Shown here piece by piece: positions 12,459 through 60,055 of a DNA stretch of 64,000 nucleotides (positions are counted from its first letter, which is position 1; every line of letters begins with the position of its first letter). The translations under genes were made by a program, and so were the position numbers. The stretch comes from Marsupella aquatica (Eukaryota > Plantae > Marchantiophyta). The stretch spans positions 4,095,223-4,159,222 of the forward strand of contig OZ316892.1 of the NCBI GenBank assembly GCA_973895155.1, given 5' to 3'. Under the pieces are notes generated by a model that saw only the letters and a program-made list of their open reading frames with translations, made no database searches and was not told the DNA's origin.

Positions 12459-16489
<4,031 letters not shown>

Positions 16490-17348
16490 TAGGATGGACG
16501 TGATCCTTTGGCGTTTACACATCAGAGTATAGTTGCTCGCTGTAAATATTGTATCTGCCCTTTTATTTGGCAGTCCATTTTTTGGGTACCTCCAAATAAC
16601 CATTGTGGATCAGAAACCTCACTTACAAAATTTTGGGATAGGACAGCCCCAATTGTTTCAGGAAAAGATTTATAGGCGGTTAGATTGAAGTCACTCCTCC
16701 GTCACTGCAAGTACAAAAGAGTGTTTAGCCCGATGAGAAATCTCATCTTTTGTGAAATTCGATACAACAGCAGTTGCTGTACATTCTCTTTTCTGGCCTG
16801 GCTAACTCAGGGACCTGAGATTTCTGCGTGACGAGTCAATATATCCAGGACAGTTGTTAAAGGAAGTATAAAGATTCAATGATGTCAAATCCAGAAGTTC
16901 GAAAGAAAACGGAATTCTGTGGGATGGCTCAGAGTTGGCTAGTAGCGAGAAGCGTCGATGTGTTGCATTTGGCCTAGGTCTCAGAAATCAGCCCTGCCCA
17001 ATGTCATTAGGATTGCATGCACTTATCATAAGCTTCTAGAAAAGTACAAGCAGCAGAGGCAACTCACCTTGTTGCAAGTCTAGGCTAAGTGAGCAGACAA
17101 CCTTTGTTTAAAGAGAGTTTTGGAAAATTCTAACCAGGGTGGATCAATGAAATAGACTTCCTTCTCTGGAATTTTGGCTGGGACTGAGTGAAGATAGGTC
17201 CGCAGCCAAAGAAAACAAGGCCCCCTGCCTGGTCACTATTCACTTCTGCCCAAGTGAACAGTGCCATCCCATTCTGTTCCACCCCCGACCTCGCTTACTG
17301 GCTATCTGCAAAGAAGGAAAGATGTTGGCTGAGTTGGGTTGTAACCGT

Positions 17349-18129: not shown

Positions 18130-19125
18130 AGGAAGGGAAAACTACCAACGAACCCTTACAAGTTGCCTAATTTACCAAAATGCCCCTCCTAATCGTTGGC
18201 ATGCAAGTGTTCTCATTACTCTGCAGAACGAACTAAAACTATAGGAAGGGAAAATTATCAAAGAACCCTCACAAATTGATTAATTTACCAAATTACCCCT
18301 CCTAATTCTATGGAATGCAACTGTTCTCATTACTCTGCAGAACGAACTAATAATATAGAAAGGGAAAATTACCAACGAACGCTGACAAGTTGCCTAATTT
18401 ACCACAATACCGCTCCTAATTCTTTGGAGTGCAAGTGTTCCTTCTGCTGCCTGTCAATGGCCATTGAGAGTAGTTTGCTATGCAATGTGCACTGTGATGC
18501 ACAATACAGGACAATATATAGACTACGATTTGTTGCAAGTCCCCTACAAGAGTCAGTGGCCTTGTGAGAAACAAGGAACACCTTTGCCTAGTTGAGACAT
18601 TGCAGGGATATTCTAGTAAATTCCAAACTTTAATGGCATTTTGGTATTTTTGGTAGCTTATTGGGGTAAGTTTAAAACTTTCCCATGCATGAATACATGC
18701 ACACAATGTGCAACCTAATACCAATGTCAGCTGTCACCGAGGTTAATCATTTATAACCCAGTCTACAACGAAGTACTTTTCCAGTATACCCTTAATTTGG
18801 GCTTCACTGTGACTTGTCCAGGATTAGCTAAGATAACCTACGTAAAACCATTGTCTGTTGTAACCCTGGTTAACAATTTCTCAACCTAGTCTACCATGGA
18901 GTCCTTTTCCAGTTTACAGCTAATTAAACTTCTCTGTGACTTCTCCATGGTTAGTTTAGCCTAAATACCATTGCCCGCTGCAACCCTGGGTAACAGTTTC
19001 TCAACCCAGTCCACTACGGGAGGACTTCTGCAGTGTACACTTAATTAAGGTTCCCTGAACATGTCCAGGGTTAATTAGGTACCATTGTCAGTTGTAACTT
19101 TCTTTAAAACGGTTCTCAACCCAGC
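18130..19125. repeat. Two adjacent degenerate tandem arrays (~115 bp x3 at 18130-18440; ~125 bp x3 at 18730-19125)
   Basis: Recurring gaagggaaaa(c/t)taccaacgaac..aatttacca and accattg.c.g.tg.aaccctgg.taaca.tttctcaaccc.agtc units. Confidence 0.7.
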
Positions 19126-19230
19126 CGATTACTTTCAGGAAAGGCAGTCGCATAAAATGACGTGGGGCCAATAAGGTCAGGCCAAGAGGACGACAGACTG
19201 ACAGAGGAAGCTAAGGGGGGCGTTGAGATA

Positions 19231-19275
19231 GAACCATAAGTTTAGTGCGCGCTGTGGTAGGGAGGCAGTACAAGG
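19231..19275 (+). promoter_or_regulatory. Possible snRNA promoter: USE-like AACCATAA at about -67 and weak TATA-like TACAA at about -30 of U1
   Basis: Positions fit Pol II snRNA promoter spacing. The motif resembles the (A)ACCCATAA-type USE recalled for algae and early land plants, not angiosperm TCCCACATCG. Inference only. Confidence 0.35.
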
Positions 19276-19298
19276 GCCTGGAGCATACCGTGGGTTGC

Positions 19299-19460
19299 AT
19301 ACATACCTGGGCGGGGTTAATCGCTGATCCTGAAGGGCGACAGCCTAAGACGAGCTCTCCCATTGCACATGACGGCCGGGTGAGTCTTAGCATTTCTCCA
19401 AGGGGAATATGCACGTCATAATTTGTGCTCGAGGAGGCTCGCGTTCGCGCGGCCTCCACC
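19299..19460 (+). ncRNA. U1: U1 spliceosomal snRNA, variant 5' end AUACAUACCUGG
   Basis: 162 nt. 5' ATACATACCTGG; SL1 loop GATCCTGAAG; SL2 CTAAGAC/GTCTTAG stem with ATTGCAC U1A loop; SL3; Sm site ATAATTTGTG; SL4 GGAGGC-T-CGCG-TTCG-CGCG-GCCTCC. Confidence 0.93.
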
Positions 19461-19569
19461 AATGTAAAAGGACCATCATCTGAATTTTGATATGGACGGC
19501 GCGTCCTCCGATTTTCAGGTGTCCAGGCAGTTTTCCTTCGTCGCAGTCAGTCGGAGGATCTTGTCTGGT

Positions 19570-21535
19570 CTTGCGATTTCTTCAACATTCGGTGTTGAGA
19601 CAGCTTCTTCTGAATCGTCGTCGGGATCTAGTGAGGTTCGCGCGTTTCTTCAACCACTCAGTCAGTCGGAGGATCGTCTTGCGATTTCTTCAACATTCGG
19701 TGTTGAGACAGTCTTCTGCTGAATCGTCGTCGGGATTTAGTGAGGTTTGCGCGTTTCTTCAACCACTGCGTCGAGACAGCCTTTTTTCAATGGTCGTCGG
19801 GTTTATGTAAGGTTCGCGCGTTTTGTACAACCTTCGGTGTTGAGACAGTCTTCTTCTGAATCGTCGTCGGGATTTAGTGAGGTTCGCGCGTTTCCTCAAC
19901 CACTGCGTCGAGACAGCCTTTTTTCAATGGTCGTCGGGTTTATGTAAGGTTCGCGCGTTTTGTACAACCTTCGGTGTTGAGACAGGTTCTTCTGAATCGT
20001 CGTCGGGATTTAGTGAGGTTCGCGCGTTTCTTCAACCACTGCGTCGAGACAGCCTTTTTTCAATGGTCGTCGGGTTCATGTAAGGTTCGCGCGTTTTGTA
20101 CAACCTTCGGTGTTGAGACAGGTTCTTCTGAATCGTCGTGGGGATTTAGTGAGGTTCGCGCGTTTCTTCAACCACTGCGTCGAGACAGCCTTTTTTCAAT
20201 GGTCGTCGGGTTTATGTAAGGTTCGCGCGTTTTGTACGACCTTCGGTGTTGAGGCAGTCTCCTTCTAAATCTTCGTCGGGATTTAGTGAGGTTCGCGCGT
20301 TTTTTCAACCACTGTCGAGACAGCTTTTTCTCAATGGTCGTCGGGATTATGTGAGGTTCGCGCGTTTCTACAACCTTCGGTGTTGAGACAGCTCCTTCTG
20401 AATCGTCGTCGGGATTAAGTGAGGTGCGCGCGTTTCTTCAACCACTGTGTCGAGACGGCTTTCTCTCAATGGACGTCGGGATTATGTGAGGTTCGCGCGT
20501 TTCTTCAACTTTCGATGTCTAGACAGCTTTTTCTCCATCGTCGTTGGGATTAAGTGAGGTTCGCGCGTTTCTACTTCCTTCGGTGTTGAGACAGCCTCTT
20601 CTGAACCGTCGTCGGGATTAAGTGAGGTTCGCGCGTTTCTTCAACCTTCGGTGTCTAGACAGCTTTTTCTCAATGGTCGTCGGGATTATGTGAGGTTCGC
20701 GCGTTTCTACAACCTTCGGTGTCGAAACAGCTTTTTCTCAATTGTCGTCGGGTTTAAGTGAGGTTTGTGCGATTCTTCAACCTTCGGTGTCGAGACAGCT
20801 TCTTCTGAATCGTCGTCGGGATTAAGTGAGGTTCGCGCGTTTCTTCGACCTTAGGTGTCGAGACAGCTTTCTCTCAACCGTCGTCATTTTGGGATTAGTC
20901 ATTGGGGTTTAAGTGAGGTTTGCGCGTTTCTTCAACCTTTGCTGTCGAGACAGTCTTTCCTCAACCGCCGTCGTCGGGATCTAAGAGGTGCGGGCGTTTC
21001 TCTTACAGTCGGGTCGAGAGTGGATCGAGACAGTGCTTTAACTTTAGTGTCGAGAGTCGAGATAGTGCTCCATCGTTATCGGGGTCGAATTGAGAGGTCG
21101 GGGGGTTTCTCCAACCTCTGCTGTGGAGAGGTTAGACTCCTGCTCCATCACTATCGGGACCTAATCGGGAGTTTCGGGCATTGCACCACCCTTTGGTGTC
21201 GACAGTCGAGATATTGCTCCATCGTTATCGGGAGCTAATTGAGAGGCTCTGGCATTTCTCCAACATTTGGTGTTGAGAGTCGAGACAGTGGTCCATCGTT
21301 ATCGAAAGCTAAATGAGAGCTTCCGGCGTTTCTCAAACCTTTGGGGCCGAGAGTCAAACAGTGCTCCTTTGTTATCGCGTATAATTTAGAGATTCGGGCA
21401 TTGCTCCAACCTTTGGTTTCGAGAGTAGAGACTTCGAGAGTTGAGACAGTACTCTATAGTTCTCGTAATCTAATTGAGAGGTTCGGGCATTGCTCTAACC
21501 TTTGGTGTTGAGAGTCGAGACAGTGGTCCATCGAC
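19570..21535. repeat. CpG-rich satellite: ~68-bp monomers (136-137-bp dimeric higher-order repeat at ~19690-20400) grading into ~72-bp diverged units
   Basis: tagtgaggtt landmarks at 19741, 19878, 20014, 20150, 20287. Monomer gtgaggttcgcgcgtttcttcaacc...gagacagc...cgtcgtcgggat. Diverged units run from ~20990 to 21535. Confidence 0.92.
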
Positions 21536-25008: not shown

Positions 25009-26506
25009 AGTGGTATGAGAGCATGCTTGGGAGGTGACAAGGTTTTTTTGTGATAGGTTTTTCCAGCGTTCATTGTCGCTGATACATTCGGAGTTTCGTC
25101 GCATGAAACTCAAATGTGTGTGGCTGTGAGGACAGGTTAGTGAGAGGGCTTTCTAACGGTGGTTAGAACTCGCTGATCGGTATCCGTGGTGCGGAGGAAT
25201 TGAAGTTTGCGTCATTCAGGTTTTATTCGTGTTCGATGACTTTTCGGGGGAGAGACCAGAGATCGCATTTTTCAACGGTGTGAGCCGTGCGGTGCGAGAG
25301 GGATCGCACATTATAGCTCAAGTTGAAGGTTGAAGCGAGCTGGTCGTTTCGGTAGCTGGATTGCTGCCGAGTTGTTACCAAGTGTGTCGTGACGAGTGAA
25401 GGAGGCGTTCAGGTTTTTTCACAAGCTATGGAGCTTGTTCCCATCTGAACCGGGTTTCTCTTTGTGACGTCCGACTCGGTGGAAGAAACACGAAGTGCTA
25501 CGGCTCAACGGTTTGATCACGGCGAGGCGGTCGTTTTGAGTCCGGGAATGGCACTTGATGCGGAGTGAAGGCGACACGACAAAATTTTTGACTCTGCTGA
25601 GCTTGTAGACGGCGCCAACTCAATTCGGCAACTTTTCATGTCGGTGCACTTCACTTTCTCTAGCTAAACGGCATTTAGGTTTATTACACGGCCTTATTTG
25701 TGGTTAAATCAACTTTGTTTTTAAAGGTTACTTTAGACTCCCGTTTTACTGCCTTGCCCTACGGGGGTTCCCTCGGCCCGGTCCTCCTTATTTACCACCA
25801 CGCCCCGCCCCTCTGTACTTCAGCTGAGCCCAGCCGGCCCTGCCTTCCCTCTCGCGACCGGGACCTGCCGCCCGTCGCCCCTCCCTCGTCATTTTTTCCC
25901 CGTACGCGGCTGCGTACGCAGCCGCCCGTATTCTCCCCCGATGTTACGCCCTTCGTACCCCCGGCCCATACGGGGTATTTTTGGCAAATAAGGGGCTTTG
26001 GACCCCCTTTAGGGCCCCTTTTTAACCTTTTTTCCCTCTTTCTTATTTTACTTGGAAACGGGACTAGCCGCCCTCCGTTTTCACCGCTCCGACAAGGGGA
26101 ACGGCCCCCTATGAGACCTATCAGACCGTGCGGGAATATTCCTGAAAAACAGAGAGCTGTTTTTTGGCCGTCCGACAAAGATTTTGTCTGCCGAACGATA
26201 ACTTTTTTGGTTCTTTTTCGGTGAGGACGTTGCCACTGGAGTTAGCAACGCGGCGCACCAATCACATCGTGATTCCGACGACGGGTTGTTCTGGGTATTT
26301 TGGTTATTCTCCGAGGTGGTCAAAATGGGGGAGTTTCTCAAGGTTTTACCCACCCTAACCAAAATTTGAATAACTTTTCCGTCAAATTTTGATTTTGATT
26401 TCGGCTTTCAGTATTGGACTCCTAGCTTCGTGGGCTACGCGGCAGTGTTGAGTTTTGAGTTTTATGAGAAGTTTCAAAAAAAGACGTTTTTTCGTGATTG
26501 TTTCAT

Positions 26507-27644
26507 ATGAGTGACTCGGAGGATATTGGAAGAATTGGCGTCGGTGGAGCTTCAGGATCGCGATGGTCAGACGGAGAGTCTGAGGAAGAGCTGCTACCGT
26601 TTGAGGAGGAACTAGTGACACCGGTAAGATCATCGGTGCGGCGTGCAATGGAGGAAGCTGTACTACTACCAGAGCTGTTGGTAGTGGGGAAGAAGAGGAA
26701 GATGGCTAGATTTGGAGGAGTGAAGTTTGAGGTGGAGAAGTATGATGGTCATACTGATTACTTGCTCTGGGAGAAGCAAGTGAAGGGTGTTCTACGTGCC
26801 ATGGGCTTAGCTCATCTGCTTTCTTTGCGAGAGCAGTATGATGAAGAGGAGGAGATTTCTGTGAGATAGTGGAGACAGGAGCAGGTGATTGCTGTCAACG
26901 CAGTGATGCTATATCTCAAGCCGCACATCATCAAATAACTAGATGATTATGCGGATTGCACGTCACTATTCAAGGCTCTAAGAGAGAAGTACTACCGGAA
27001 AGATGTGTCAGACCGGCTGTACAAGAAGTCTCTCTTGACGAGCCTCAGGCTCAAGGAAAGGAGCAAGATGCAAGATCACTTGGATGAGTTTGACAGTCTA
27101 GCGGTGGATCTGTCAAACCTGGGAAAAGGAGTTGAAGATGAGGATAAGGCCTTGCTTTTGCTAAGCTCCTTACCGCCGTCATATCAGGGCTTGAAATAGG
27201 TGCTCTTGTACAGAGATCTAAAGTCCATTTTGTATAATGAGGTGGTGAGCTCTTTACTGTCTGATGATGCTTAGAAGAAGCTGGGTCAATCACAGACAGC
27301 ATCTTCTTCTGGCAGTGCACTGAATGTGAACCGTGGGAGAGCAGCGCAACGCTCAAATGGACAGAACAGGTGTAGATCTACATCACGGGGGAGATCTAAA
27401 TCCAGAGGAAAATCACAAGAGAGAAAGCCTCTTGCATGTTGGAATTGTGGCAAGCCTGGCCACATGAAAAGGGATTGTCGAGTAAAGGTCCCTACTGCAT
27501 CTGCTAACGCGGCATCGAGCTTGCATGAGGTAGATTTACTCGATGATGATGACATATTGTGATGCCAAGGTTATCCTCTCAACGTAGTGTCAAATCCAGG
27601 TAGTGATGACTGGATTCTAGATAGTGCATGTAGTTTTCACATTT
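26507..27644 (+). pseudogene. Copia gag and start of protease
   Basis: KFEVEKYDGHTDYLLW; EDEDKALLLLSSLPPSY; zinc knuckle CWNCGKPGHMKRDC; protease WILDSACSFHI cut by the insertion; in-frame stops. Confidence 0.92.
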
Positions 27645-44851: not shown

Positions 44852-47800
44852 GCTCTAGGAGAGATTTTTCAGTTCTTACACGGTTTCCAACGGGTCAGTG
44901 TTGATGGGAAATGGAATCCCATGTCAAGTTGTTGGACTTGGATCTGTAAGATTTCAGATGTTTGATGGTGTTGTAAGAACGTTGAGGAATGTGAGACACA
45001 TTCCCAGCATGATGAAAAATCTCATTTCACTTGGAGTTTTAGAAGCAAATGGCCATCAGTGGAGTTATGCTAATGGTGTCCTTCAGGTTTCAACTGGTAC
45101 TAAAGTTGTATTGAAGGGAAAAAGACATAGCAATCTATACATTTTGGAGGGCAGTGTTGTTTGTGATGAAGCCAATGTAACCTTATCTCACGAGGAGACG
45201 GCCCGGGTGTGGCACTTCCGTTTGGGCCACATGAGTGAAAAAGGTTTGGCTATTCTTCAGAAGAAAGGATTACTTTCTAATTTGCAATCTTGTAAGTTGG
45301 AATTCTATGAGCATTGTGTGCTTAGAAAGCAGCACATGAAACCCTTCAGAGTTAGAACTCACACCAACAAGGAGGTACTTGAGTATGTACATAGTGATGT
45401 GTGGGGTCCAGCCCCTACTCCCTCACATTCTGGATGATTATACTATGTCACGTTCATAGACGATTACTCAAGGTATGTGTGGATCTACTTTCTACACAGT
45501 AAGTCTGATATTTTTGCCACTTTTAAGGAGTGGAAAGCCCAAGTTGAGAATCAGATTGGTAACAAGGTGAGATATCTTCGATCGGATAACGGCGGTGAAT
45601 ACAGTTCCGGGGAATTTGGAATGTATTGTAAGGAGCAGGGGATTACCCGCCATCTCACAACAAGTTATACTCCTCAACGGAATGGTATTTCTAAGAGACT
45701 CAACTGAACACTATTGGACCGCTCGAGGAGTATGTTGAGTCAATCATGCTTACCACATGAGTTTTGGGCTGAAGCTGTCAACACTACAGCTTATTTGGTA
45801 AATTTTTCTCCATCAAGTTCTATTGGATTCAAGACGCCATTTGAAATGAGGTACGGGCGTCTAGCAGATTACTCACATCTAAGGATTTTTGGATGTGATG
45901 CTTATGTGCTTACACCTTCCCAGCTTCGATCCAAGCTGGAGTCCAAGTCGAAGAAGTGCATTTTCCTTGGCTATTAGAAAGGTGTGAAGGATTATAGGTT
46001 ATGGGATCCAGTAACCTGTAAACTAATTGTCAGTAGAGATGTGTCCTTTAATGAATCCAGATCATCAAAGGAGGGGGAGAGTTCTCAGGACTCCCATACT
46101 GACAAGGGGAGATCTCCCATCCCGGACCGGGTTGAGGGGGAGATTAGTCATGATGATGTTTATGACAGGAGAGATGGAGAAGCTCCGGGCTTGGAGCTGG
46201 TTCCTGTGATGGAACAAGAGGAGCATATTGTTGCTGGGGTACCTCAAATTCAGCCAGCAGCAGCAACAGATCAGCCTAAGTCATCTACTAGAAGAACTTC
46301 CAATCGTTCTAGTAGAGCTCCTACCAGGTATGGTCAATGGGCAGACTCATCTAAATTAGATGACATTGACATTGCACCCGATGATGATGATGATATGGCT
46401 TTGATCTTGGAAGAAGGAGAGCCTTCTTCGTACAGTGAGGCTTGTGCTTCAGAGCATAAGCATGAGTGGAATGCTCGGTGGAATGCAGCAATGCAGAGGG
46501 AGTTGCAATCTTTGAGTGACAACAAGACATGGGAGCTGGTGGAGCTTCCAAGAGGTCAGCAAGTGGTGGACAGCAAGTGGATTTACAAGTTGAAGGATAG
46601 TCCTTCAGAGGGTGGAGACAAGATCTACAAGGCAAGGCTTGTTGCCAAGGGGTTCACTCAAGAGAAAGGAGTGGACTACAATGAGGTCTTTTCACCGGTG
46701 GCTAAGTATTCCACAATTCAGATCTTGTGTCAGCTTGTTGTGTTTTTTGGTCTGGTGATGGATCAGATGGATGTTGTTACTGCTTTTCTCTATGGCAACT
46801 TGGAAGAGTTGATCTTCATGAGATAGCCACTAGGCTTTATGAAGAAGGGCCAAGAGAACTTAGTTTGCAGATTGCTCAAGTTCTTGTATGGATTGAAGCA
46901 GTCTCCCAAACAGTGGAACAAACGGTTTGATGATTTCATGCTTGCTCAAGATTTTACAAGGATGGTGTATGATCCTTGTGTGTATACAAAATCAGTCAAG
47001 AATGATGTATTTGGTTTCATCATTCTAGTTATTTATGTGGATGACATGCTGATTGTGGCTAAAGATCAATCTGAGGTTGACAGTCTCAAGGCAAAATTGA
47101 GTGCTGAATTCAGGATGAAGGATCTTGGTAAGGCCAAGAGGATCTTAGGGATGGAGATTTTTAGGAACTCTGAGACTGGACAGTTGTGCTTGAGTCAAGG
47201 CCCGTATGCGAGGAAAGTACTTGCACGATTCAACATGGAGAACTGTAAGCCAGTGAGTATTCCTTTAGCTTCACATTTCAAGTTATCATCGGCTTTCTCT
47301 CCTACGGATGCTGTGGAGAAAGGTCTGATGGCTAAGATTCCTTATGAGAAGGCAGTAGGCAGTGTGATGTATTTGATGACTTGTACTAGGCCTGACTTGG
47401 CCCTAGCGATGGGCAAGGTTAGCAAATTCATGTCAAATCCAAGGAATGTTCATTGGGAAGCTGTGAAGTGGATTCTCAAGTATGTGAAGGGAACACAGGA
47501 CTATGGATTATTATTTGATAATAGATCAGATAGAACGTTGGTTGGCTATGTAGATTCTGACTATGGAGGCTGTCTGGACACAAGGAGGTCTACAACTGGG
47601 TTTGTATGCACTCTTGGAGGAGGATGTATCAGTTGGAAATCTACCTTGCAAAAGTGCATTTCTCAGTCTACTACAGAAGCAGAGTATGTTGCAGCAGTAG
47701 AAGCAGCAAAGGAAGCAATTTGGTTGGACAAGTTGATCGCGTAGATGGGTTTAGAGCATGCCAAAATGACTCTAAACTGTGATAGTCAGAGTGCTCTTCA

Positions 47801-50105: not shown

Positions 50106-53100
50106 TCAAGATTTGCAAATCGATTCGCTTTGGATCCTTTCCTCTTTACATCGAGGACAGGAGCAAACAAAACCATAATCAGCAAGCATAGCCTGCCTAT
50201 CTTCAAGGTCTGCATCTTCATCAATATAGCTTATTGTTATCTGCATGGAGGACAGTTCCAAGCAACCAACATTAGATATCCACCACTTGATATGTTCATA
50301 AAAAAATCCACACGACAAGTCAAGGCCAAAAACTAGAGCCAAATTAGACTCTCGATCTCAGACAAAGAATTCAGCTATAAATCGAAAACCGTTATGTGCG
50401 AACCAAATCAGCGACACATCCCCTTTCTTTCGACACCAAGAGTTTCGTACGAAGTTGGGTAATCTCTCTTGTGCCTGTCAGAGGCAGTTTCTCGTAGTAG
50501 AGTCACGGATACGGTGAAATGGCCAAAGCTAGGGGGAAACTTATCTCAAAGGAAAGTACGGTGGATTCAACGAACTCATACGAGCCACCTTTCACTCTTT
50601 TCAGTTAGGCCTAGCTGATAACTTCCCGAAGGATCACTTTTGATAATTCATACTGAAGATGCACTGGCAGACGAGCCACCAAAGAAATATTCATCTTGGA
50701 AATTAGACTATGTTCATATGTAGTCTAAGGAGAAGAGCGAAGGAGAAGAGCGAAGGAGAAGAGCCGGAGGTACTGTACATACCTCCTCACCTTTCCTGAT
50801 TGGCCTTGCTGCGAGCACCACAGCATGGCCATCCCTATCCTGGTGAATATCAATAACAGTCAAATTAGTACTGTTAAGGCTGGCAGTCAAAGTTAAGCTT
50901 CGCAGTTACATAAAGACGGGCATCAAGAGCAATATACTGCAAGACTCAAGACACTAGCACGAGAAAAGATAAATTAACGAACCTTCTACATGACAGACAT
51001 TACCTCTACAAATTTCGCTTTGAAACTTGTAAAACAAAACCTACCTCATCCCTCTTGAAGGCCTTGGCATTGGGCTGACAGGAATGATTGATACAACTCT
51101 GTAGAGCAAAAAATCCTGAACCTGCAACATTGAAGCTGGGGTCAATTTCAAACCTTGAAGTGAAGCAAAACTTTGAGCGGAACCTGTGAGGCCCACAGAC
51201 AACGTGGATCTTGCATGACATTTATCAGAGAAAGAAGCTAAGCAGAAATAACTTCGATGGACTAGTGAAAGGCAGTCAATAAACTTAAACAGCTGTCAAT
51301 AAATGTTGCAAAGTTCAGGAAAGGGTACTACCTTGACAATAAGCTGCATATTCAGAACCCAAGGCATCTAAGAATGGCTTAACAATCAAGTCCGCTTCAG
51401 CCTGGTTACGAGATGTGACATGCAGAGATTTTAGCGAATTTAGTAATTGTCCATAATATTCTGTGCCGTCCAAAGAGATTGCCGTTTACGAATGAGAAGA
51501 ATGGATGCCACCGGGACCCAGAAACAAGGGGTAATTTTGAACAGCCGAACCTACTTTGGCCAAAGGTGGAAGATCATCAATGTATATGAAATAGTCCTCC
51601 ACTGGTGAAGCGACCACTATCTCCCTGAACATGTAACCAGCTAGAAAATTTGAGAGAGAATGTGAGCAGATTTATCTTCACAATGAAGAAAGCTTTTAGC
51701 TTATTTTCAAAAAGAAAAGTGAACATCTACAGGAGAAACCATTACAAGTTGTTTTGCTCGAACATGCCGATAACGTGCCCGTAAACCTCCATAGAAAATA
51801 CTGAAGAATCCAGTTAAGGTTGGACATTGTCTACTACATTGAGATACCAACGTCCTTCAACAAAAGAAAGAACAAGCCCGGTAGAGAAAGAACAAGGCTA
51901 GGACTCCTTGATGCTTCCAACAATGATCCACAAGCACACTTTTACTACTCAATAGAGATCGAATGAAAATTTAAGGAATCGTACGTCTACTAGACTCGAG
52001 CTGGTTAAGGAGAGCAGAGAAAGGGAAAGAGTCGAGAAGGTAGTCGTTCACAAGGATACAAGGTGAAAACCCTTCTTCATAGACAGCTTCTTTCAAGTAT
52101 TTCAAGGACTGCCAAACCAACATCCGACTGGATAAATTTCTGTACAAATTATGTATCCAAAAGTGTTTTCTTAATAAATAACTCATGAATACTTGTGCTG
52201 TCTTTAGTGTGGTTTTTCATCATTCATGATCAAACTCAAACTCTACCACCAGTATACTGTTCGAACATCTCGTTGCTTTAAAAGCTGGGAGCACACTAAT
52301 AAAGCAAGTTGTTGCTGATATTTCCAACATTATGTTGATTCTTTCAAGATGACCTTTATATCTCAATCATTTTGGGAAACAAACCTTGGAGGCAAGCCCT
52401 TGTATCTGTTCTCTGAACGCTGTTTCCTCTGAGGAACTCATCCCGGATGGCAATGCAACAGCTTCCCACCACCTTCCACCCACACGGCAAAACGTTGGCA
52501 AAGTCAGTACATAGCAGGACCAACCAGCTGCTTTCACCCTAAATTAGACAGGCCAAACAGCTCCCTTAGAGCCGAATAATTACCTGTTGAGAACGCATCA
52601 CACTTCAGATTATAGACTTCGGGATGAACCTTACAATTTCTTGTGGCCCATTGCAAAGGGCTCCCAAGCCTCCAGCAAAATATCGAGATCGTCTTGTTCT
52701 TGGTCAAGACCTGTCAGCTTCCTCCGATTTTGATGTTCACATTTCTCATTCTTTAGTCTCCGTCCTTGCAAGATAGTCCCCGAGATGACCTACAGGATTC
52801 AGGCCCAACACTTACCCAGGATTACTTATGCTCCGTTAAATAAAAACTTACAAGTCATGTCGTCACACGGCAATCGATATTTACATACCTGGGCAGCAAC
52901 ATGAAATATGTCATTGGTTTCTGCACACGATAACTCGATGTTACAAACAAACATCAATTTTTTTCCAAATTCGAGCAATCGGATATTAATATATGAATGT
53001 AGTGGAACTACACAGGGCGCACACGTGTTCTTGACAGCGCATAAATACGTGAATCAGTTTTATAAGGATTCTCAATCCCAGTCCCAAAGCAGTATAGCCT

Positions 53101-58111: not shown

Positions 58112-58846
58112 CTACAAACTTCCTAGTGCCTTAGAAATCTCGGAGGTAACGTCTTTCGGAGATTTCTCCGCATGAAGATGGGCCACTATTCCCTTCCGTT
58201 CATAATAGTCAACCACAGGGCTCGTTTGCTGATGAAAGGCCTCCAGCCTGCTCTTGAGAACGTCCGCATTATCGTCCTTCCTCTGGATCAGCTTCTCACC
58301 GGTCACGTCATCGATCCCGGCCTTCTTGGGTGGCGCGAACTTTGTGTGGTATGATCGTCCACTGGCAGGGTGAATCCAACGACCTGTAATGCGCTCTTCG
58401 AGCACAGAATCTGCAATCTCGAAATCCAAAACCTTATCTATCTTGGTGCCCTTTTTCGCAAGCATCTCATCCAACTTCTGAGCTTGGACCACCGTGCGAG
58501 GAAACCCATCCAGAATGAACCCTTTCGAGCACGACGGACGCTTCAGGGCTTCGTCAATGATGCCAACGACGAGATCGTCACTCACGAGCTCTCCCTTCTC
58601 CATGGCCTTCTTCGCCACCACTCCAAGAGGAGTTTGTGCCGCCACCGCGGCCCTCAGCATGTCTCCAGTGGCAAGATGACAGAGGCAGTAATCTTCTTTG
58701 ATCACGGGAGATTGAGTCCCTTTTCCGCACCCGGGTGGCCCGATGAGGATCAATCGCTTCTCAGACTTTGGAGCGCATCGCAATCGCCTCAACACCTCGG
58801 TCATGAGGCTATCAATGGGCACGTCCTCCAAATTTGGCGTTGCCAT
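58112..58846 (-). CDS. ADK: Adenylate kinase (AK2/plant ADK3-4 type), 244 aa, no coding introns
   Basis: P-loop [10 protein letters not shown]; HLATGDMLR; [13 protein letters not shown]; [10 protein letters not shown]; [19 protein letters not shown]; QRKDDN. Confidence 0.97.
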
Positions 58847-60055
58847 CTTCCCAAGTCTCGATCGATCGAAAGAGAAGAGCTAATCAAGACGCGTCCGAGG
58901 AACAAATCTACTGACTTCCCAGAATCCCTGTCCCCGTTTCCTCGTTTACTCAATGTCAAGACGATCCAGCAAATCCGGCGGCTATGCAACAATGGCAGCT
59001 GTCTTGAAGCTCGAGTCGGCCCTACAAAACCGGCAAAAAACGGCTGCACCCGAGACCAATTTAAAATCTATAGGGTATTTAAAGTGCTCATCACGCAGTA
59101 ACCCAGAAACGATCCGCATGACAATCTCCAGGTGCCACTTATTGCAGCCAACTCCCAAGTCTGAGGTGGTCATTGCATCCAAAGATTTACCTCTTAGGGT
59201 AGCAACACAAAACTAAACACAAACACATAGAAAATCCGCGGAAGAAAGATTCTTTCTCGTCTTTACCTAGCCCTCCAGCATGGTTATAAAGAAATAAAAA
59301 GTCTTTCAAGATATTTCCTTCTCTTACAGTAGTCGATCACTAAATCACTTCGCCAACAAAAAGAATCAACAAATGCTAATCGTCAGTCTCCGGCCGCGCA
59401 GATGTCCCCTTACAACGAGACTCCCCGCTCTGTCTAAGACTAAACTCGAGACCATGGATTACTTCTCCACATCGCCGAACATCCGTCAAATGGACGGGGG
59501 CACACAAAGACCTAATAGGGGCGAACTACTAGTCTCTCACATCTCACCAAACTCGAAGATCTCCAAAAGACTGCTTCAAACAGATGAGACCACAAGCGTG
59601 TTATCAGCTCGATTGATCGATCGCCAGAGAGAGCTAGAGGGAGATCTTCGGGACCATACCTAATCACACATCGAAGGAGCGAGAGAGCAACCCGCAGCTG
59701 CCGATAGATCACTCCCTTCCGTTCTTTCACTCGCGCGACCGACCAGCAGCACCTCCCTCCATCATTCAAGCATTTTGGTGGATCGATCTCCTCGAGTCCT
59801 CGTCGCCTCGATCGCTGGTCAGTAGAATAGCAGAATCCAACAATTGGAAAGCTGTGACACCTACTCGCAACCTCCGAAGAAATGGCAGCCCCTGTGATGT
59901 TGGCGTTGTCACAAAATCGTCGTGGAAACCTTCTTAGAGTCTTTACTTCACCAACTTCAGTCAAATGTGCTCACACGATTTCTCTGAGCTCGGATCCGAT
60001 TTCTGCTGTCACGCGGAGTAATCGAAAATTTTCTCGTCTCCCCTAAAACAAGAAT

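Follow-up and report, generated by a model that had tools for sequence, protein, structure and literature searches.

The 64,000-nucleotide stretch of liverwort DNA analysed here (the window) contains a full-length U1 snRNA gene on the forward strand (19299–19459) whose 5′ splice-site-pairing arm carries A instead of U at nucleotide 5. The A5 variant is real and apparently constrained, and a function for it is plausible. At nucleotides 3–8 the window gene reads ACAUAC where canonical U1 has ACUUAC and, judged by both sequence and duplex energies, its arm is complementary to GUAUGU, as in the variant U1 of Physarum. U1 of the ACAUAC type is a kind already known from that organism, to which the liverwort case adds a land plant; a literature search, which covers few subscription journals, found no land-plant U1 with A5.

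The gene belongs to the U1 snRNA family (RF00003, variants included) by a full-length covariance-model match at 19299–19459 (model positions 1–166, 107.3 bits, E = 4.6e-26; gathering score 69.5), which is the sole Rfam match within the window. When folded with the protein-binding loops kept open, the RNA adopts the U1 cloverleaf (a four-way junction with SL1–SL3) followed by SL4 at −53.2 kcal/mol, whereas its free fold (−58.3 kcal/mol) is no better than those of shuffled sequences (z = −1.32, with 20 of 200 shuffles equalling it). Along the forward strand the parts are the pairing arm AUACAUACCUG (19299–19309), with A5 at 19303; the SL1 loop GAUCCUGAAG (19326–19335), which is the U1-70K site and has C at nucleotide 32 (19330); the U1A motif AUUGCAC in the SL2 loop (19362–19368); the Sm site AAUUUGUG between the junction and SL4 (19420–19427); and the SL4 hairpin with its UUCG loop (19432–19457). 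The Rfam alignment and the constrained fold bear out the original prediction that the stems, U1A loop, Sm site and SL4 still pair. The gene resembles canonical U1 in length, cloverleaf, U1A motif, Sm site and SL4 and departs from it at nucleotide 5, which is normally a pseudouridine and here is A, and at nucleotide 32, which is normally A and here is C. The SL1 loop is otherwise close to standard: of its 10 letters, 8 agree with the Rfam consensus, and of the two that do not, one falls at a variable place. Position 32 is A in all 14 of the other U1 sequences collected, among the matches listed, and in human U1 this base is reported to stack on the RRM of U1-70K (PMC4383343, available text).

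The substitution at 19303 was compared across contigs from six of ten sequencing runs (X1, X2, X3, X4, X9 and X10), the small-share air-metagenome runs X5–X8 being left out. A 7,826-nt contig of X1 is identical to the window over 18900–19597, including A19303; X1 is possibly the source run of the window and so not independent. Runs X2 and X4 come from another study, labelled organism B, and hold two versions of the locus, one of them identical to the window over 18900–19329; A19303 is present in both. In X10, from a further study, a depth-2 contig is identical over 19298–19360, while its 155 upstream letters fail to align. The contigs of X3 and X9 do not span nucleotide 5. The same base in contigs of other studies rules out a base-call error, and its presence in the second locus version means that the U-to-A change, as originally called, is no singleton.

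The second locus version in X2 and X4 allows the RNA body to be compared with its flanks. The upstream flank differs from the window by 34 substitutions in 399 nt plus 16 gaps, and the downstream flank by 16 substitutions in 151 nt plus 2 gaps. By contrast, the RNA body has three changes in 161 nt (1.9%) and no indels: A1C, U99C and U131A, the last being placed in this version by depth sums. The contrast between body (3/161) and flanks (50/550, 9.1%) gives a Fisher P of 0.0006; the comparison is of assembled contigs, which collapse variants, and assuming six or eight body changes raises P to 0.015 or 0.06, respectively. An X4 contig over 19239–19329 differs from the window at eight places, none of them 19303, such that A5 is kept. 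Both U99C, which turns a U–G pair into a C–G pair, and U131A, at an unpaired position, are structurally mild. The C at nucleotide 1 breaks the conserved AU start, and an altered initial AU can reportedly shift the start of U1 and weaken cap-binding (PMC5766165, available text). The A32C change is common to both locus versions and to the X10 contig. Run X9, from a third study, likewise labelled organism B and of low depth, holds pieces of the diverged version only (19366–19468, one change in 103 nt). The two versions could be homeologues in a hybrid or polyploid, orthologues if the sample was mixed, or paralogs. The contrast between body and flanks points to selection on the U1 gene and not specifically on A5, because at 9% divergence any one base would be kept by chance with a probability of ~0.9. 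The marks of a pseudogene are missing here: the body does not diverge at the rate of the flanks, and the gene is full length and without a poly(A) tail.

Each run also holds several further U1-like contigs that align only over 19388–19469; in X2 and X4 these paralogs show 5–11 differences in 53–81 nt of the 3′ part. Plant U snRNAs are described as multicopy (PMC5079582, available text). One paralog contig in X4 aligns over 19297–19329 and has an upstream flank unrelated to the window, and depth arithmetic shows that X1 has a contig there too. Because the X1 contig of the window locus runs unbroken through the gene, the sequence of this close paralog must depart from that of the window close to an end of 19297–19329, and a U at nucleotide 5 would fit.

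The upstream sequence contains a putative TATA-like box near −30, TACAAGG (19269–19275, +), as expected of a Pol II snRNA gene. The same seven letters stand in the same register in the unrelated flank of the X4 paralog, and no change in the box is listed for the second locus version. An upstream sequence element is less certain. The candidate AACCATAA (19232–19239, +) has one mismatch to the green-algal element ACCCATAA given in the available text of PMC8287931, a consensus that is not from a liverwort, and it lies 29 nt from the −30 box as against 32–34 nt for Arabidopsis Pol II genes. Downstream, a 3′-box-like element (19457–19469, +) is one mismatch from the plant motif CA(N)3-10AGTNNAA (PMC5079582, available text); a search for that motif found no exact copy and one match when a single substitution was allowed.

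Donor sites were mapped in two neighbouring genes by spliced alignment to proteins of Calypogeia and of Marchantia, both of which gave the same 25 introns (11 in CNOT11 and 14 in the ATXR2-like SET gene). One intron, at 52059, with what we take to be a U12-type donor, was left out, and all donor counts are for the 24 major-type donors of these two genes. The commonest hexamers are GTATGT and GTAGGT, tied at 4/24 each, with GTAAGT at 1/24. The four GTATGT sites to which the original prediction had drawn attention all proved to be true donors: intron 5 (14100–14105, +) and intron 11 (16203–16208, +) of CNOT11, and intron 6 (52883–52888, −) and intron 14 (50777–50782, −) of the SET gene. They represent a possible target class and not a cis-acting part of the gene. 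These donors lend no support to a re-tuned U1, since for an RNA that works in trans it is irrelevant what lies next to its gene. Nor is an excess of +4U visible among the 24 mapped major-type donors, in which the +4 letter is A in eight, G in seven, U in five and C in four. Donors with +4G are frequent in CNOT11 (12460–16490, +) and the SET gene (55140–50100, −), although the sample is small. The intron set aside (52059–51801, −), presumed to be U12-type from the consensus, has GT–AG ends, the donor GTATCCTT and a branch-site-like CCTTAAC motif near its acceptor.

The pairing logic of the original prediction is right, in that nucleotide 5 of U1 faces intron position +4 (PMC3753624, available text) and the A5 arm is predicted to pair with the four GUAUGU donors more strongly by ~4 kcal/mol, as computed without pseudouridine. 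Across all 24 donors, duplex energies are better with the A5 arm in 5 cases and with the canonical arm in 17, with 2 ties. Because the canonical arm pairs better with 17/24 donors, canonical U1 is probably required by the host genome, with no more than a minority donor class left for A5 to serve.

Altered U1 arms of this kind have been described elsewhere, and the closest parallel is that in Physarum polycephalum, which has the same ACAUAC arm and in which standard and modified U1 genes are said to coexist (Roy and Bowser, bioRxiv 10.1101/2022.06.08.495308, available text). GUAUGU is the commonest donor in Physarum, whereas in the two genes mapped here it makes up 4/24 of a mixed set and is tied with GUAGGU. 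Unlike the Physarum U1, the window gene is from a land plant and also carries A32C. According to the available text of the same source, the U1s of Entamoeba (ACAAAC) and Mastigamoeba (ACGUAC) are likewise altered at letters facing +3/+4 with the rest of the RNA intact; each of those organisms has a single clear U1 candidate that matches a shifted donor consensus, while the window gene is one of several paralogs. Such matching is described there as rare and unexplained: lineages with GUAUGU introns almost never alter nucleotide 5 to suit, U5 is kept in 69/69 Saccharomycotina U1 candidates, and yeasts, Giardia and Trichomonas retain it despite their GUAUGU donors. The substitution of the window gene has also been engineered in yeast as the U1-U5A laboratory allele, which removes the U:U mismatch with GUAUGU; unlike the natural window gene it is a construct, and cells that carry no other U1 allele are viable but grow slowly, while U5C grows like wild type (PMC3753624, available text). 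Human variant U1 genes are paralogs whose changes, as here, affect the arm and the loops for U1-70K or U1A. Those with altered arms are common and their expression has been shown, at a very low level (together <0.1% of U1 in 293T cells; PMC8457000, available text), whereas what is seen for the window gene is conservation across two diverged versions of its locus.

Metagenomes were scanned for U1-like patterns carrying A, C or G at nucleotide 5; the pattern excluded U5, and the scan hence has no denominator. It returned 25 loci, of which 23 were rejected as not U1 by Rfam and two were U1-like, both having A5 with a normal A32. These two unrelated genes are a clean U1 with 152.4 bits (L007:601–766, +) and a U1-like sequence of 59.2 bits, below the Rfam cut-off (L004:338–502, −). 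Finding A in both cases would happen by chance one time in nine if A, C and G were equally frequent. A hint of selection, albeit a weak one, may be seen in the recurrence of A and not C, because yeast growth is unharmed by C5 but slowed by A5, so that mere tolerance would rather predict C. A scan of genome contigs gave at least 12 U1 matches on at least seven contigs among the 125 loci listed, all with U5; the ones that were examined do not resemble liverwort sequences. Bacterial genome bins also contain U1 genes of eukaryotic type, some in tandem and several with unusual SL1 loops (L053–L056, L092–L094, L041, L052, L064, L083 and L123), likely on contaminating contigs.

We tentatively favour, at somewhat less than an even chance, the explanation that this full-length gene with its ACAUAC arm encodes a transcribed, Sm-assembled auxiliary U1 favouring GUAUGU introns, with presumed canonical paralogs handling the rest. 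Pol II would transcribe the gene from the −30 box, and the A5 RNA would be capped and assembled into an snRNP. This particle would bind +4U donors through a Watson–Crick A–U pair in place of the usual pseudouridine–U pair, and the gene would have been retained because of that preference. The +4 position is reported to be read again at the U6 m6A step, where U is disfavoured and +4 separates donor classes (PMC11732430, available text); more speculatively, stronger U1 binding could offset the disadvantage of +4U at that later step. An auxiliary U1 is supported by the contrast between body and flanks, the shared −30 box, the recurrence of A5, the Physarum precedent and the place of GTATGT as joint commonest donor. 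Weighing against it are A32C at the U1-70K-stacking base, A1C in the second version, the missing +4U excess, the doubtful upstream element, the imperfect 3′ box and the weak expression of human variants. The specificity-shifted U1 for +4U introns that had been proposed is in this way partly upheld, in that the pairing logic stands and the base is real and no singleton, while the neighbouring donors fall away as evidence and A32C and A1C weigh against full function. A bolder version, in which leafy liverworts keep, beside canonical U1, a conserved and expressed A5/C32 U1 subfamily dedicated to reading +4U donors, and in which A5 arose repeatedly (Physarum, L007 and L004), is possible but doubtful.

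The gene might instead be a working U1 retained for dosage or for U1 function in general, its A5 and C32 being quirks that are tolerated and have no target class of their own. We consider this unlikely, but not strikingly so: conservation extends over the entire RNA without singling out A5, the donors have no +4U excess, plant U snRNAs are multicopy (PMC5079582, available text) with further U1-like contigs present here, and yeast survives on U5A alone (PMC3753624, available text). What speaks for a role of A5 itself is that A occupies nucleotide 5 in 2/2 non-U metagenome U1s and in Physarum, and that C, harmless in yeast, was never seen. Loss of function altogether, with the gene a silent or decaying paralog whose low body divergence reflects chance, assembly collapse or gene conversion between versions, appears improbable. 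Three functional positions (nucleotides 1, 5 and 32) are altered across the two versions, the promoter and 3′ box are imperfect, and the gene is flanked by degenerate 120-bp repeats on one side and a satellite array on the other; against these stand the P of 0.0006 for body versus flanks, the lack of body indels, the pair-preserving change, the full length without a poly(A) tail and the kept −30 box. Conversion from the other paralogs would not explain the low divergence, as they differ at 5–11 of 53–81 nt in the 3′ part.

It is highly improbable that A5 is simply the usual U1 of the lineage, carried by most or all paralogs. The other paralogs align only over 19388–19469, which leaves their 5′ ends unseen and agrees with such a view, but an A5-only pool would pair worse with 17/24 of the mapped donors, and the close paralog over 19297–19329 in X1 and X4 differs near one end, which fits U5 without proving it. 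U5 is also the letter in all of the at least 12 genome-contig matches listed, of which those examined are not liverwort-like. Least probable of all is an atypical, U1-70K-poor particle acting outside normal donor selection, for instance by masking cryptic GUAUGU or polyadenylation sites. Roles of this sort have been suggested for human variants (PMC8457000, available text), and A32C recurs in both versions and in the X10 contig; the SL1 loop nonetheless matches the Rfam consensus at 8/10 letters, with one of the two differences at a variable place. If the auxiliary U1 that we favour is true, a natural A5 U1 that is kept alongside further U1 genes, in a land plant whose donors are mixed, would directly test the influence of U1 arm variants on the choice of donors in vivo. 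A dedicated +4U reader, if true, would give a land plant a natural second specificity within its major spliceosome. Marchantia, a related model, would allow the question to be tested.

Three neighbouring genes have their closest named homologues in the leafy liverwort Calypogeia fissa: adenylate kinase (89%), CNOT11 (405/427 identities) and the ATXR2-like SET protein (435/504). By these matches the window belongs to a leafy liverwort, probably a species other than C. fissa. The adenylate kinase gene (58112–58879, −) is one uninterrupted reading frame. Four degenerate copies of a ~120-bp unit lie upstream of the U1 promoter (18720–19135), and just downstream of U1 is a tandem array of 68/136-bp units (19685–20885, ~18 units), similar sequence to which occurs at high depth in the runs. 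A 9-mer common to SL4 and this satellite was judged by a rough estimate to be a chance match. Broken ORFs at 26498–27562 and 44859–47744 (+) presumably represent gag/pol pieces of Copia-type LTR retrotransposons, going by their motifs.
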